In this document: in pieces, positions 245 through 13,738 of the stretch
Position numbering within the stretch: position 1 is the first letter of the stretch
How the letters are laid out: each line of letters starts with the position of its first letter
From: a virus
Lineage: Duplodnaviria > Heunggongvirae > Uroviricota > Caudoviricetes
IMG/VR virus record: IMGVR_UViG_2713896798_000009
Reading direction: 5' to 3' (one strand)
DNA length: 14,996 nt
Program-made: the position numbers and the translations under genes
Notes under the pieces: generated by a model
Databases searched by the model: none
Told to the model about the DNA's origin: nothing
Seen by the model: only the letters and a program-made list of their open reading frames with translations

Positions 245-275
245 TGTATGAAACAACGTGGAACAAATAGACACA
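245..275 (-). promoter_or_regulatory. Copy L of a repeated motif (core AACAACGTGGAAC on the plus strand; reads TTGTTCCACGTTGTT on the minus strand) with flanking TTGT-type repeats
   Basis: Exact 13-nt core at 252-264 is identical to 7749-7761 and to the reverse complement of 13699-13711; flanks are also similar. Confidence 0.4.
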
Positions 276-596
276 AGAAATATAAAGGCGGGTCATCTTT
301 CCAGGGGGAAGCGCACCAATTCATGAGGGGCGTTAATGTCGATATGGGGATCCCCACCTACCGGAATTTTTTTCCGGTTAAACGTTAATCAGGCTGGTGG
401 GCTTTACATACCCTTGATCACGGTAATGATGATTCAGGTGCGTACCTTTTCCCCAGTGGGGTAAAAGCTCCAACCGTAACGATGTTCGTTGTGGTTGCCT
501 TGATGGTCTGCGTGGTCATTATGACCATTCAGAATTTGAAGGGTGATGTTTCCGATCTCCTCAAATTGAGGTTGCCGGAAATATCAACGGGTTAGG

Positions 597-889
597 CCAG
601 AGTGCAAATTTGCACTCTGGAACAATTCCAACCAGTAATCAGCGCAATTTTGCGCTTTGCTTTAAGTTCAGCGAGTAACCGAAGGCGGAATTCCGCCCTC
701 GGTACTCACATATGAGAAACGATATTTCTTCCACCGATACCCTTTATTTGGGTATCGCGAGTAAGCCCCAAAATCTGGGTGTTACTCTTACTACCCAAAC
801 TACGGGTATTTTCCGTAATTTCATGGTCGAGTTGCAGATCTGCAACTCACCCACCAGCCAACGCAATTTTGCGCTTTGCTTTAAGTTCA
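597..889. repeat. Cluster of distinct palindromes plus a 28-bp direct repeat, lying between the last packaging gene and the left junction
   Basis: Perfect 24-bp palindrome 597-620 (ccagagtgcaaatttgcactctgg); near-perfect 24-bp palindrome 679-702; hairpin 735-757 (cgataccc/gggtatcg); perfect 20-bp palindrome 829-848 (gagttgcagatctgcaactc); 28-bp direct repeat cgcaattttgcgctttgctttaagttca at 643-670 and 862-889. Confidence 0.6.
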
Positions 890-894
890 ACCAG

Positions 895-1176
895 TTACCG
901 CCGTAACCGCTCCGGCTTCTTCCAGTGGTACGTAATTTTTGCTTTTTCCCTGTACGTCTGCACGCGGCGACGGTAGGCCAGCATTTCAAGAACGCGGATC
1001 CGTATGTTGCGCATATCCACATCATTAAGCTGGATACCATCACGGCGCATCACCTCAGCAACAACTCGCGCATAATTTTCGGCGGTCACGCTGTCCGGCT
1101 GCGTGGCCTGTTCGTCATGCTGCTGGCTGATTCCAGAGACGCGGCGGATTAATCGCAGTATTTCGGCTTCTGTCAT
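895..1176 (-). CDS. hypothetical protein (93 aa), last gene of the packaging operon
   Basis: ATG at 1176 with GAGGT RBS about 7 nt upstream; 13 nt downstream of the terL stop; no family recognised. Confidence 0.5.
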   Translation of the reverse strand: MTEAEILRLIRRVSGISQQHDEQATQPDSVTAENYARVVAEVMRRDGIQLNDVDMRNIRIRVLEMLAYRRRVQTYREKAKITYHWKKPERLRR

Positions 1177-1189
1177 GCTGCTGACCTCA

Positions 1190-2851
1190 TTACACCCCGC
1201 TAAATTCTTCCAGTTTCTGGCGGTGGCTGTCGCTTATATCAAAAGCAAAATTCTCATGCTCTGCCTGGAATGTACCAAACGCCATCAGCGCCGCTACGCT
1301 CGGGTCTATCTTGTTCGGTGATTTTTTCTTGTTCGGCTTGATATTGGCGTTCGCGTCACTCTGCATCACGACGTTACTCATCGACCAGGACAACACCGGA
1401 TCGCCACGATGCACAATCACCCTGCGGTTAACAAAAACTTCGAACGATTTCGCCGCCGGACTGAATCTGAGGTAGGTTTGCGGGAACGGCTCCACCTCAA
1501 AACCAGCCCCCTGTAATTGCGTTCTCAGGTGCGTGGCGTTCCACGTATCAAAGCCCACCAGCCTGATATTAAATTTCTCCGCATCCTGCATGATGTCATC
1601 TCTGATCCGGTCGTAATCAATGCAGTCACCTGGCGTTGTGCGTATCCAGCCCGCTTTAGCCCACTGGCGATAGACAGCGCGGTTTTTATTGGCGGGGTTC
1701 TGTAGCTGGAACTCCGGCAGATAATGACGGGAAATCAGCATAATGGTTTTACCAACCGGAAAGGCATAGCACACGCTGGAAATATCGCTGGTTGATGATA
1801 AGTCCAGCCCCGCGTAACACTCCTGCCCGTGTAAATCTTCCTCCGTGAACGTTCCGGCACACTCAGCCCATGCGCCGTAACCCATCCACGGGGTAGCCCC
1901 CTGGCACCAGATATTAAATCGCTTTGTCATCATCTCCACCCATTGCGACGGAATACCCCGCGCTTTCTGGATGGTTGAGGCCAGTTTTTCACGATCCACG
2001 GAAACATCGATGTTAGGGTTAGCCTTTATCCACATCGCCGGATCATCAACCTCGTTTTCGTCGTCCAGCTCGTAAATCAGCACAAAAATTGAATCGTTGA
2101 CCTCTTCGCCGTCCAGGATCTGGCAGCAATAATCATAGTGCTGTTTACAGGCTGAAACGACGTTACTGCCCGATGTGGTAATGGCAAATAACAGCCCTTC
2201 GGGACGTGCGCCCATCCCCAGCTCAAGCGCGGAATAAACGCCGTTATCGGGGTGTAGGTGGTATTCGTCCACGATGGAAAGGCTTGGGTTTGTGCCCTCG
2301 ATGGTTGCCGCTTTTGCTGCCAGCGGCTTTAACAGGCTGTTGCTTTTCGGGTGCATCACCTTGTGGGCCTGAATATTCACCCGCCTGCGTAACGGTCGGG
2401 ATAAAAGGCACATCTGACGCGCATCATCAAAAACGATCCGCGCCTGGTCACGGCTCACCGCTGCGGTGTAGATATCCTGCTGCCCGTTCTCCATAATCAG
2501 AAACCAGTTAGCCAGAATCGCGGCGGTCGTGGATTTCGCATTTTTGCGCGGCACTTCGATAAAGGCGCTCGTGTATTTGCGCCGTCCGGTGGCCTTAACC
2601 TTAAAGCCGAGGATGCACGCAAAGGCGAACTGCTGCCACGGCTCCAGCTCAATGGGTCTGCCACGCATCGGCCCTTTTACGTGCGGGCACACCCTGGAAA
2701 AGGCAATAAACCGCTCCACGACCTCACGATCGAACGTATAAAGGGGGTTTTTAAGGTCAGAAAAGTACCGTTTAACGGCCTGTTTCAGCCGTTTACAGGC
2801 CGGAATTTTGCCCGTTTTTACGTCTTCTGCGTACTTATTCCAGGCGGTCAA
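1190..2851 (-). CDS. terL: terminase large subunit (HK97-like Terminase_1 type)
   Basis: 553-aa ORF; Walker A-like VPRKNAKST; typical TerL N-terminus and C-terminal nuclease region; TTG start at 2851 overlapping terS by 17 nt with a purine-rich RBS. Confidence 0.9.
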   Translation of the reverse strand: MTAWNKYAEDVKTGKIPACKRLKQAVKRYFSDLKNPLYTFDREVVERFIAFSRVCPHVKGPMRGRPIELEPWQQFAFACILGFKVKATGRRKYTSAFIEVPRKNAKSTTAAILANWFLIMENGQQDIYTAAVSRDQARIVFDDARQMCLLSRPLRRRVNIQAHKVMHPKSNSLLKPLAAKAATIEGTNPSLSIVDEYHLHPDNGVYSALELGMGARPEGLLFAITTSGSNVVSACKQHYDYCCQILDGEEVNDSIFVLIYELDDENEVDDPAMWIKANPNIDVSVDREKLASTIQKARGIPSQWVEMMTKRFNIWCQGATPWMGYGAWAECAGTFTEEDLHGQECYAGLDLSSTSDISSVCYAFPVGKTIMLISRHYLPEFQLQNPANKNRAVYRQWAKAGWIRTTPGDCIDYDRIRDDIMQDAEKFNIRLVGFDTWNATHLRTQLQGAGFEVEPFPQTYLRFSPAAKSFEVFVNRRVIVHRGDPVLSWSMSNVVMQSDANANIKPNKKKSPNKIDPSVAALMAFGTFQAEHENFAFDISDSHRQKLEEFSGV

Positions 2852-3191
2852 GCTCGTCCTCTTCTTCTGTTTCCGGTGGATTTTTACGGCGGCTTATCGG
2901 GTCAAAACCGAGCAAAGAGGCCATTTTTATCATCACTCTTTCCGCGTCGGATTTCGCGCTTAATGCGGGGTTTCTGCTCTCGCCGCCCTGACTGTTAACA
3001 ATGCTGAACCCGCGCGCCGCAAGGTCTGCGACGGCTTTCCGGTATATTGAGTAATTGACGCAATACAGTTCCAGATTACTCCAGTCGGCAGGGGTCAGGT
3101 CTCCCCGTTCCGCAAGCTGCCGCGATTTTTCCCGCCACTGCTTCACGGCGATATCATCCAGGTAGGCGGGGGCTTTCGGTGGTCTTGCCAT
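2835..3191 (-). CDS. terS: terminase small subunit (P27-family-like)
   Basis: 118-aa ORF with ATG start immediately upstream of and overlapping terL; sequence resembles P27-family TerS; acidic C-terminus. Confidence 0.75.
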   Translation of the reverse strand: MARPPKAPAYLDDIAVKQWREKSRQLAERGDLTPADWSNLELYCVNYSIYRKAVADLAARGFSIVNSQGGESRNPALSAKSDAERVMIKMASLLGFDPISRRKNPPETEEEDELDRLE

Positions 3192-12728: not shown

Positions 12729-13050
12729 TCACTATCAGCGCCGTGGTGTGAGGAACTCCGGCGCATTGCTTTACAGGCGCACACAATGACCAACGAAGAA
12801 TCAACCGAAAAAACATCACCTGCACGAAAAAGACGACGCAGAAAGAAAGAGCATGAATCAGAACGATTCGCGCCGTGTTCTTTTGCCCTTGAGAAGTACC
12901 TTAAAGAATACTCATCAAAGGAGAGAGCTTCGCAGTTATGGCAACGCACTGAACCAGACTGATTGCATTGCCCACCAGCCTGATAGCGGCTATCATGCCC
13001 TTGCTTATGTTTGTTGACACATAAGGCGCAGCGGGTTAATTGTTCAGAAA

Positions 13051-13080
13051 GGCGGCTCCATATCGGGGCCGCTTTTTTTA
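13051..13080 (+). terminator. rho-independent terminator of the plus-strand regulator transcript
   Basis: Stem gcggcucc/ggggccgc with 5-nt loop followed by UUUUUUU. Confidence 0.55.
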
Positions 13081-13225
13081 TGCCTGAAAAACTCCAATTT
13101 TGTTGTTTTCCAGTCTCACTAGGGCGAACGAATCCCCGCCCACGTTCGGGCGCATATTCAATCTTCATGGTTATAGCTCTGTGTTCAGATGATTGATGTG
13201 TGGCGGCTGCGTGCCGCCAGCGTGA

Positions 13226-13414
13226 TTAATGAACTGCCTTGCAGCTATCCTTCCAGGCCAGAACCTCGGATAAAGACCAGCCAACGGAACGACCGCCAAG
13301 TTTACGACGTGATGGGAATTGTCCGGCCTTTTCCATGCGGTAGCGACACGTACGGCTAAGGCCGGTTAGTTTTTCGCATTCTTTTTCACGTATAAACCGA
13401 TCAGTGCTTAACAC
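13226..13414 (-). CDS. alpA: AlpA-family (excisionase-like HTH) transcriptional regulator
   Basis: 62-aa ORF with GTG start and AGGGGG RBS; pattern LTGLSR..RYRMEKAGQFP...LGGRSVGWSLSEVLAW matches the AlpA/Xis-like family; adjacent to int. Confidence 0.8.
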   Translation of the reverse strand: MLSTDRFIREKECEKLTGLSRTCRYRMEKAGQFPSRRKLGGRSVGWSLSEVLAWKDSCKAVH

Positions 13415-13565
13415 TATTGCCCCCTTTCGTTTCTTAAAGAGTCATCAGGTGTCTTATTGTGTCGTATTGTTCCCGCTAGAGTGATGAATGGCAAATGTTG
13501 GTGGCGCATGGTTTACAGAAAGAGGAATAATCAGGATAAAATCATTTAAATTCATGTTAATACAA

Positions 13566-13595
13566 AGGCATAAAATCTCGTTTTATGCCTTTTTT
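13566..13595. terminator. strong hairpin with flanking T/A runs between int and alpA, possible bidirectional terminator
   Basis: 10-bp stem aggcataaaa/ttttatgcct with 5-nt loop; followed by TTTTT on the plus strand and preceded by an A-run (U-run on the minus strand). Confidence 0.5.
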
Positions 13596-13686
13596 CTCAC
13601 GCTTTAAAGCGTGATTCGCTAATGTATAAAAAACCAGTAATATAATAAAAATCAGCGACTTATAAATCTGTATGCTTTTTCGCCTC

Positions 13687-13738
13687 TTGTTCGTGATTGT
13701 TCCACGTTGTTGCACATTGTTTCACGTTGTATCTGTTC
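13687..13738 (+). repeat. Copy R of the repeated motif: phased array of five to six TTGTT(N)CACG-like 10-bp direct repeats just 3' of int
   Basis: TTGTT recurs at 13687, 13697, 13706, 13717, 13727 and TGTTC at 13734, roughly every 10 bp; includes the 13-nt core at 13699-13711; followed by the 16-bp perfect palindrome cagtatgcgcatactg at 13747-13762. Confidence 0.5.

Follow-up and report, generated by a model that had tools for sequence, protein, structure and literature searches.

Small excisionases (RDFs) such as P2 Cox, 186 Apl and P4 Vis act on direct repeats spaced by about one helical turn, both at att sites and at promoters, and these dual sites couple excision to a transcriptional switch. 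The action of Cox and Apl is mainly repression, their sequence families are different ones, and none of the three is known to control a satellite capsid operon. Vis has been cited as the P4 homologue of AlpA (PMC6092414). A comparable arrangement is that of TorI and IntS at attL and PintS of KplE1 (CPS-53), where a small winged-helix RDF also works on 10-bp phased direct repeats: TorI binds three GTTCG units with 10-bp phasing that adjoin a promoter within attL (PMC2951348; the units are visible in the sequence), and these repeats lie in the att arm near int, beside separate Int arm-type sites, while doubling as promoter control. TorI represses int, however, and activation of other operons is not known for it. 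In the case of lambda Xis, the protein binds head to tail to X1-X1.5-X2, between an Int arm site and the core, and bends the arm, but these sites occur in one arm only and have no comparable promoter role.

Closely related systems are the satellites EcCICFT073 and EcCIEDL933, whose induction depends on AlpA; they share with the island described here the protein family and the array of repeats upstream of alpA. Reporter data indicated that AlpA activates PalpA but not Pint, and AlpA alone, without phage, induced int-dependent excision and replication, so that both autoactivation and AlpA-driven excision were demonstrated experimentally (PMC6092414). AlpA is likewise a positive autoregulator in EcCIMP1 (PMC11773190), and an EcCIEDL933 alpA mutant shows no induction (bioRxiv 10.1101/2022.09.08.507074). 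The AlpA protein of PICMI works as an RDF without transcriptional effect, and the same work leaves open the interplay between AlpA and integrase at excision (PMC10803314). No mapping of the sites used by AlpA in cis was found in the literature searched.

The stretch of DNA analysed here (the window, 14,996 nt) is a capsid-forming PICI (cf-PICI), an EcCIEDL933-like E. coli phage satellite inserted in tqsA. The 9-mer TGCTGTTAT found at its left junction recurs at the right one (L001, 18188-18196), where the tqsA reading frame picks up again, and the int product carries Arm-DNA-bind_3 and Phage_integrase domains. Repeats were scored with a unit matrix trained solely on alpA-upstream arrays and applied as three phased units, with a cut-off of 22 bits. 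The main features are the following.

129-137, strand not assigned: att core or identity block TGCTGTTAT, left junction in tqsA
211-233, plus strand: left-arm pair of 12-bp motifs, ATGACTACACCAGTGACTACACC, as candidate Int arm-type sites (arm-only, tracks the Int clade)
250-279, plus strand: copy L, located in the left att arm and made of three phased units, GAAACAACGT GGAACAAATA GACACAAGAA, 30.5 bits
6375-7532, minus strand: HK97-type major capsid gene, gene 1 of the packaging operon (annotation of a near-identical record, and translation)
7747-7776, plus strand: copy M, three phased units TGAACAACGT GGAACGACCA CGAACAAATA, 25.7 bits
13226-13414, minus strand: alpA, encoding a 62-aa PF05930 winged-helix protein (Pfam E=1.2e-16), the proposed binder
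13684-13733, minus strand: copy R, made of five phased units that lie past the int stop and ahead of the alpA promoter region, 31-37 bits per triple
13779-14996, minus strand: int, 3' 1218 nt (start codon at window-equivalent 15011), from annotation

An earlier note on this DNA had pointed to a 13-nt core shared by three control positions. Indeed, exact copies of AACAACGTGGAAC are found at 252-264 (+), 7749-7761 (+) and 13699-13711 (-), and two more copies, with two mismatches, lie at 13709-13721 and 13719-13731 (-); these five matches compare with 0.43 expected, and five were reached in none of 200 shuffles. The similarity of about 25 nt that had been noticed between the second and third copies amounts to 92% over 25 nt, and that between L and R to 80% over 30 nt. 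The core is part of a larger design of head-to-tail 10-bp units of the GAACAA type (consensus GGAACAAYNN), which bears out the direct repeats of about 10 bp described for R: on the minus strand this array reads GATACAACGT GAAACAATGT GCAACAACGT GGAACAATCA CGAACAAGAG. Each array comprises three to six units, the spacing is exactly 10 bp in every copy, and the invariant positions of the unit are ACAA, with a G preferred two bases upstream, A-tracts not being the invariant feature. The three-phased-unit matrix yields five matches of at least 22 bits in the window, and none of 500 Markov-1 shuffles contained any match.

The positions that had been claimed for the copies are also correct. Copy R starts just 3' of int, 45-95 bp past its stop codon and about 270 bp upstream of alpA, and copy M is found 215 bp before the start of the capsid gene. 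Copy L does lie near the left junction, about 115 bp inside it, but the role upstream of int that had been assigned to it needs refining. The int-adjacent copy is a fourth array, located about 70 bp past the edge of the window (window-equivalent 15065-15114; L001 18065-18114), with the int start on one side and the attR core on the other. Copy L is half of a co-oriented pair of att-arm modules, each made of a doublet and an array, that flank the attP core.

In both of these arms the GAACAA array is located beside, yet distinct from, a doubled motif. The sequence ACTACACC occurs just four times per island, two in each arm and nowhere else, and the distance from doublet to core is about 89 and 143 bp. 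The right arm has the order ACTACACC doublet, array and then about 75 bp to the core, which is the placement of the lambda Xis sites. The left-arm module is common to PICIs at five other attB sites, and the type of doublet shifts with the integrase clade (GACCACACA twice at 67% Int identity, TGTATTGC twice in the helper-embedded type). Since it is confined to the arms and varies with the integrase clade, the ACTACACC doublet appears the better candidate for an Int arm-type site, and it is likely to be one; it is a neighbour of the GAACAA array and separate from it. A similar layout was described for the attP of helper-embedded PICIs, where two co-oriented TGTATTGC doublets with 12-bp spacing flank the attP centre at 81 and 132 bp (Tommasini et al. 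2023, PMC10111431). That doublet was said to be absent from other PICIs, and the adjacent GAACAA arrays were not described there.

The region between int and alpA contains, besides copy R, two further elements.

13444-13473, minus strand: putative second array, weak at 15.3 bits, of units GGAACAATAC GACACAATAA GACACCTGAT, 30-60 bp ahead of the alpA start
13563-13595, minus strand: hairpin with flanking A and T runs in the interval between array and alpA, kept with a compensatory change

The GACACAAT repeats of the weak array are conserved in the alignment. A sigma-70 promoter match upstream of alpA is not, and no confident position could be assigned to the alpA promoter. In one island (L018) an indel of about 10 bp, located between array and promoter block, preserves helical phase. 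Arrays of five to six units occupy the R position in EcCICFT073, in the EcCIEDL933 type and in most of 80 IMG/VR loci. The AlpA protein itself is 92% identical to that of EcCICFT073. An AF2 model built from the single sequence (pLDDT 86.5) most resembles excisionases of known structure, the best PDB match being that of GIsul2 (8c3t, TM 0.79), and by this predicted fold AlpA is a winged-helix protein of the excisionase (RDF) class. The identity to TorI is only about 33% over 27 residues.

Copy M lies in the leader of the capsid operon, where three further features were recognised.

7672-7695, minus strand: hairpin in the 5' leader of the capsid-operon transcript, with compensatory changes
7701-7728, minus strand: predicted capsid-operon promoter, -35 TTTACC (7723-7728), 16-nt spacer and -10 TATTCT (7701-7706)
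7774-7786, minus strand: TTTTGTAAATTAT box adjoining copy M, which cf-PICIs from five genera keep ahead of their capsid gene

The leader hairpin shows compensatory stems (CCAG/CTGG versus CTCA/TGAG) around a constant GACG loop, and a TATNNT hexamer precedes it by exactly 7 nt in all cf-PICI leaders compared; an Rfam scan of the window gave no matches. Relative to the predicted start, copy M would span -53 to -82. It is the sole conserved block in the otherwise unalignable leaders of divergent cf-PICIs: in two unrelated leaders the array ends 17-18 nt ahead of a -35-like hexamer, the promoter being a prediction whose -10 footprint is phylogenetic, and its spacing to the predicted -35 and -10 is constant within about 1-3 bp across the two leader types. 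Among loci that encode AlpA and have a cf-type capsid gene, most show a match at or above the 22-bit cut-off about 215 bp before that gene; L077 and L098 show none, through decay of the middle unit. Relative to transcription, the array is oriented oppositely at the alpA and capsid promoters. A terminator scan had suggested a hairpin or terminator in copy M (CGTGG-N5-CCACG), which was rejected because the dyad is not preserved in L016-type islands.

The distribution of the array was followed over about 1.2 Mb, comprising 13 loci (303 kb, host flanks included) and 80 IMG/VR loci (925 kb). Matches of at least 22 bits were confined to the two att arms, the spacer that separates int from alpA and, in cf-PICIs, the capsid promoter, four places in all. 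The array is kept, with this exclusive placement, in about 100 related islands. The arm module and the alpA array are present in PICIs at six attB sites, classical and capsid-forming alike. At their capsid-like operon, classical PICIs that share this AlpA lack such an array. In distant cf-PICIs (Rosenbergiella, Citrobacter, Erwinia and Gilliamella) the GAACAA motif is absent and other regulators are present. They carry a different triple repeat at the M position, and no sharing of sites between att and promoter was seen in them. L004 and L005, which have no AlpA, carry TTACCC three times at that position. In cf-PICIs devoid of AlpA the repeat at M was not found in the att arms, so that a late activator need not be the RDF. 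Four islands with a second AlpA allele (L019, L020, L101 and L102) lack a long array upstream of alpA, having instead two or three weak CGAAC units and a different AATATC repeat. The two main AlpA alleles appear to share the same GAACAA units, which makes covariation between allele and unit sequence uninformative.

Conservation and exclusive placement strongly support the proposal that a single DNA-binding protein would recognise the 10-bp phased repeats at these control positions. Among the binders suggested in the earlier note AlpA fits best, and the array is probably the operator at which the island's own AlpA acts, with a role in excision, in auto-amplification and, where cf-PICIs are concerned, in activation of the capsid operon. 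We infer AlpA as the bound protein, its binding as a phased multimer and its activation of the capsid promoter. AlpA would bind the GGAACAAYNN units head to tail, side by side along one helix face, as Xis and TorI do. At the att arms, where three to five units lie beside the likely Int doublet, it would be the directionality factor enabling Int to excise the island. Repeats of about one helical turn, in an att arm beside distinct Int sites, and a small winged-helix RDF encoded by the same element are all found here, and the requirement of AlpA for excision comes from close relatives (PMC6092414; bioRxiv 10.1101/2022.09.08.507074). The arm copies make better sense as excision (RDF) sites than as sites of the int promoter, which, by the reporter data, is not under AlpA control (PMC6092414). 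The five units upstream of the alpA promoter would underlie the published positive autoregulation and, in cf-PICIs only, the three units at about -53 to -82 would put the capsid and packaging operon under AlpA. PICI arrays differ from those of KplE1 in being present also at two promoters far from att, and their GGAACAAY units do not score as TorI sites.

These observations suggest that cf-PICIs have wired their capsid operon directly to AlpA, whose direct command of capsid production would replace late control by the helper phage; such wiring would explain helper-free capsid formation. AlpA is the master switch of phage satellites of Gram-negative bacteria, and the arrays provide a concrete, testable candidate for its operator, separate likely AlpA sites from likely Int arm sites within attP, and give a unit matrix that could act as a sequence signature by which the limits of such islands, and their att arms, are recognised. 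As dual-role excisionases are well known, an AlpA operator would be mechanistically unsurprising, though useful to those working on PICIs.

Could a protein other than AlpA or the integrase be the binder? Several small conserved proteins (Icd-like, DUF4222, YlcI/YnfO-like) are encoded in all motif-carrying islands, and host binders of phased repeats may be considered, such as a nucleoid protein or a response regulator of the OmpR family, whose members typically recognise direct repeats spaced by 10-11 bp as well. We regard this explanation as unlikely, since the small island proteins have no predicted DNA-binding domain and no known link to excision, and about 150 kb of flanking E. coli chromosome contained no match of at least 22 bits. 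PerC was discarded, as arrays are kept in islands without its gene (L015 and L018).

It is rather improbable, in turn, that the repeats are arm-type sites for the N-terminal domain of the integrase, the copies at alpA and the capsid operon allowing Int to act on those promoters by repression or modulation. Of the four arrays, two do lie in att arms, co-oriented around the core as arm-type sites are, Int carries an Arm-DNA-bind_3 domain and occurs together with the motif in nearly all islands, and IntS of KplE1 regulates a promoter through its arm sites (PMC2951348). However, Int probably has a site already, since the second, arm-exclusive ACTACACC doublet tracks the Int clade: with two plus two copies, matching a tetramer, it is this doublet that shifts, whereas the GAACAA array stays. 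For the integrase arm domain, also named in the earlier note, this separate doublet tells against the suggestion. The GAACAA units are unchanged across Int identities of 67-100%, do not co-vary with the Int clade and extend beyond the att arms, and where five or six units follow in tandem on one helical face, this is characteristic of RDF sites rather than of Int arm sites. Because AlpA and Int co-vary in most islands, phylogenetic profiles rarely split them, but at M the array persists alongside unrelated Int clades: the helper-embedded L017 has a different Int clade, and L100 an Int like that of L004 with an HTH_17 Xis, yet both carry the array at M and an AlpA-family protein (L004 and L005, of the same Int/Xis type as L100, have no AlpA). 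As the capsid module of L017 and L100 is about 99% identical to that of L016, their M copy may be a recent import rather than a selected one.

A helper-phage inducer, such as a phage excisionase or activator, might bind the alpA-upstream array and induce the island, the other copies being secondary. Helper phages raise alpA transcription, partly independently of AlpA in EcCIMP1 (PMC6092414, PMC11773190), cross-talk of RDFs between elements is documented (PMC11773190), and no other conserved element upstream of alpA is as conspicuous as the array. Nevertheless, this seems quite unlikely, because AlpA without phage activates PalpA and triggers excision (PMC6092414), cf-PICI capsids are made without a helper (bioRxiv 10.1101/2025.02.11.637232), very different helper types induce islands that share the same array, and neither the X1-X2 sites of lambda Xis nor the TorI sites of KplE1 score with the unit matrix. 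A variant that we consider very unlikely makes the alpA-upstream array the long-sought entry point of helper induction in Gram-negative PICIs: a DNA-binding protein of the helper, for example an RDF or an early regulator, would settle on the same phased repeats and switch on alpA, after which AlpA autoactivation would take over; if so, identical operators at the att arms and the capsid promoter would spread one signal to excision and capsids.

That no protein is involved, the arrays being duplication remnants or phased A-rich units that simply bend DNA, is scarcely credible: the two arms are clearly duplicates of each other and AACAA units at 10-bp phasing could add curvature, but capsid-operon leaders that cannot be aligned have the array, and no other block, in common, its invariant feature is ACAA with a preferred G, not A-tracts, and its position relative to promoters is fixed.

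An analogy with AlpA of Pseudomonas, a Q-like antiterminator of more than 140 aa that inserts an N-terminal segment into the RNA exit channel and uses a single GGGACG between -35 and -10 (PMC9371919), was set aside, the present AlpA being a winged helix only, of 62 aa, with a different motif and position. Replication-origin iterons were likewise discarded, because the island's own iterons are a separate repeat, GGTGAACAGT, that differs in sequence and sits elsewhere, at 9497-9714, 3' of the primase gene.

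Over its full length, the window matched E. coli chromosomes at 95-99% identity, and in the best-matching record the island was inserted in tqsA. The - strand carries all the main genes:

13779 to beyond 14996, - strand: int, with its start at window-equivalent 15011
13226-13414, - strand: alpA, encoding a 62-aa helix-turn-helix protein (PF05930, E=1.2e-16)
also on the - strand: primase, SSB, PerC and a small ORF
7532 down to 1190, - strand: packaging operon (HK97-type capsid, protease, portal, connector, HNH, TerS, TerL)

This gene set is that of the capsid-forming PICIs (cf-PICIs) typified by EcCIEDL933 (bioRxiv 10.1101/2022.09.08.507074).

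The earlier note had described a 13-nt core repeated exactly at three sites, and these were recovered with starts at 252, 7749 and 13699, within copies that we denote L (250-279, +), M (7747-7776, +) and R (13684-13733, -). Two degenerate neighbors begin at 13709 and 13719, and the five matches in the window compare with 0.43 expected, a count that none of 200 shuffles reached. The similarity of about 25 nt claimed between M and R was found again by a repeat finder (25 nt, 92%), which also paired L with R over 30 nt at 80%. Likewise, the direct repeats spaced about 10 bp apart at R proved to be five head-to-tail 10-bp units of the GAACAA type (coding strand: GATACAACGT, GAAACAATGT, GCAACAACGT, GGAACAATCA and CGAACAAGAG), while L and M contain three units each. 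At alpA and at the capsid operon, the array is oriented differently with respect to transcription.

A fourth copy was located beyond the window in L001, a near-identical record, between the int start and the attR core; this segment is a same-orientation repeat of the left end and holds GTGACTACACCAGTGACTACACC followed by ACAACGTGAAACAAGCTGGAACAAGG. The att core, TGCTGTTAT, is found at 129-137 and at L001 18188-18196. In the reconstructed attP, one side reads doublet (a doubled 12-bp motif), array of 4-5 units, about 75 bp and core, and the other reads core, about 73 bp, doublet and array of three units. The same arm modules were present in further islands:

EcCICFT073 (L014), between phoQ and roxA
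the smrA/abgR island (L015)
the yifB island (L018)
the EcCIEDL933 type in O157:H7 (L021)
a Shigella island (L002)

All five carry an array of 5-6 units directly 3' of int. A 10-bp matrix, trained only on the arrays upstream of alpA and scored as three phased units with a cut-off of at least 22 bits, was run over 303 kb of loci, host flanks included, and 925 kb from 80 IMG/VR loci encoding AlpA relatives. Matches fell at four places only: in each arm, between int and alpA, and some 215 bp upstream from the cf-type capsid gene. No Markov-1 shuffle of the window reached 22 bits with the three-unit matrix. Judged by this conservation, the repeat arrays are real and functional. The long array upstream of alpA is absent from islands with a second AlpA allele, where it is replaced directly 3' of int by 2-3 phased (G/A)AATATC units (L019 14490-14530, L102 1283-1315); these islands also carry, about 110 bp upstream of alpA, 2-3 CGAAC units.

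As binders of the array, AlpA, the arm-binding domain of the integrase (Int) and a helper activator had been proposed. Each att arm holds one doublet (GTGACTACACC twice; 211-233, +, and L001 18037-18060), and each island has exactly four occurrences of ACTACACC, all of them within its two doublets. The doublet sequence varies with the integrase clade, as follows (by Int identity to that of the window):

76-100% identity: ACTACACC
67% identity: GACCACACA
41% identity (helper-embedded clade): TGTATTGC, the motif reported by Tommasini et al. (PMC10111431)

Across the 76-100% and 67% classes, the GAACAA array is unchanged. It is unlikely that one protein with a single arm-binding domain reads two unrelated motifs, and the doublet, exclusive to the arms and following the Int clade, is therefore the better Int site, probably of the arm type, which leaves the array to another protein. 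Among the proposed binders, Int is disfavored and AlpA favored. The doubled motif of HE-PICIs likely extends to other PICI clades, from which it had been reported absent (PMC10111431). AlpA and Int co-vary in most islands.

The capsid-operon leaders of divergent cf-PICIs (L016, L017, L018 and L100) cannot be aligned with the window except for a block of about 45 bp, consisting of TTTTGTAAATTAT and then the three units of M. A predicted -10 hexamer (TATNNT) lies exactly 7 nt before a leader hairpin with compensatory changes, and a -35-like hexamer is found 16 nt further upstream. Relative to the start predicted near 7694, the M array spans about -53 to -82, a placement that varies by about 1-3 bp between the two leader types and is the one that an upstream activator would occupy. 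L017, with an Int of the helper-embedded clade, TGTATTGC arms and two AlpA-family genes, keeps the GAACAA array at M, as does L100, which encodes AlpA, an HTH_17 Xis and an Int of the L004 type; L004 and L005, whose Int and Xis are of the same types as in L100 but which lack AlpA, carry TTACCC three times at this position. This argues that the array goes with AlpA rather than with Int. In L017 and L100, no array scored outside M in the available sequence (the arms of L100 lie beyond its contig). With capsid modules about 99% identical among L016, L017 and L100, the M copy of these islands may be a recent import. Classical PICIs have no M-type site at their capsid-like operon.

In the Rosenbergiella, Citrobacter and Erwinia cf-PICIs, a TTTTGTAAATT-type box upstream of the capsid gene, identical to TTTTGTAAATTAT in two of them and with one mismatch in Citrobacter, precedes three phased units of the TTACCC type in place of the GAACAA units (L003 3935-3975, L004 9790-9830, L005 9780-9825). 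Those islands encode an HTH_17 Xis but lack AlpA, and the TTACCC-type repeat was found at no other place in them. In the window, the capsid-operon leader (7624-7695) forms two hairpins, one at 7672-7695, with a GACG loop kept and compensatory stem changes across genera, and one at 7624-7671 with a 17-bp stem. Upstream of M, the PerC gene and the small ORF each end at a 27-nt intrinsic terminator, and the two terminators are nearly identical (7793-7819 and 8147-8173; AAAAAGCCGGATT.CTCCGGCTGT).

The predicted AlpA model is a three-helix winged helix (pLDDT 86.5), whose best match among solved structures was the GIsul2 excisionase (8c3t, TM 0.79), with MerR-type DNA-binding domains and RdfS next. 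In EcCICFT073, whose AlpA is 92% identical, AlpA activates PalpA but not Pint, and its overexpression by itself leads to excision and replication that depend on int (PMC6092414). AlpA autoregulates positively in EcCIMP1 (PMC11773190), an EcCIEDL933 alpA mutant shows no induction (bioRxiv 10.1101/2022.09.08.507074), cf-PICIs make filled capsids without a helper (bioRxiv 10.1101/2025.02.11.637232) and, for PICMI excision, AlpA is both required and sufficient, with transcription unchanged (PMC10803314). One motif lies in the AlpA-activated promoter region and in both att arms, which fits a protein that is both activator and directionality factor. The nearest worked-out case to the PICI arrays is KplE1, and Cox, Apl and Vis are further directionality factors with such a dual role. 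In KplE1, the attL blocks bound by TorI consist of GTTCG units phased at 10 bp and adjoin IntS arm sites and the PintS -35 (PMC2951348); the attL sequence, when checked, agreed with that report. The PICI units were ruled out by score as TorI or lambda Xis sites, and the Pseudomonas antiterminator also named AlpA is a larger, different protein with a different site (PMC9371919). We infer, with somewhat more than moderate confidence, that AlpA binds the array as its operator, an array not described in the literature searched.

Between R and alpA lies a conserved hairpin (13563-13595) that has an A run on one side and a T run on the other and shows a compensatory change (GGCATAAAA/TTTTATGCC versus GGCGTAAA/TTTACGCC). 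With its stronger T run on the + strand, the hairpin may halt antisense transcription arriving from the ylcI-like gene on that strand. This ylcI/ynfO-like gene, the only one on that strand, is separated from the icd-like operon (- strand) by a direct repeat, GTGGGCCACACCT twice (12455-12500), on either side of promoter-like sequence, which looks like a separate operator.

The 15 kb of the window contain 15 copies of Chi (GCTGGTGG; 5 +, 10 -), versus 0.52 expected from shuffles, and these are spread over its whole length (e.g., 393-400 +, 1555-1562 -, 12972-12979 -); around three of them, a context of 16-18 nt is shared (GCCCACCAGCCTGATA). A Chi sequence also lies in the left-end non-coding DNA, about 65-115 bp beyond the L array, of the other PICIs in which this part was inspected (L014, L015, L016, L018, L019). 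Such sites may protect an element without a Gam-like gene from RecBCD. The non-coding region of about 600 bp that separates the last ORF from the left att arm (280-890) gave no Rfam match; a 53-nt sequence is directly repeated within it (629-681 and 848-900), and it also has GCGCAATTTTGCGC palindromes and several further hairpins. Directly 3' of the primase gene, dense direct and inverted GGTGAACAGT repeats (9497-9714) form a probable replication-origin iteron cluster.
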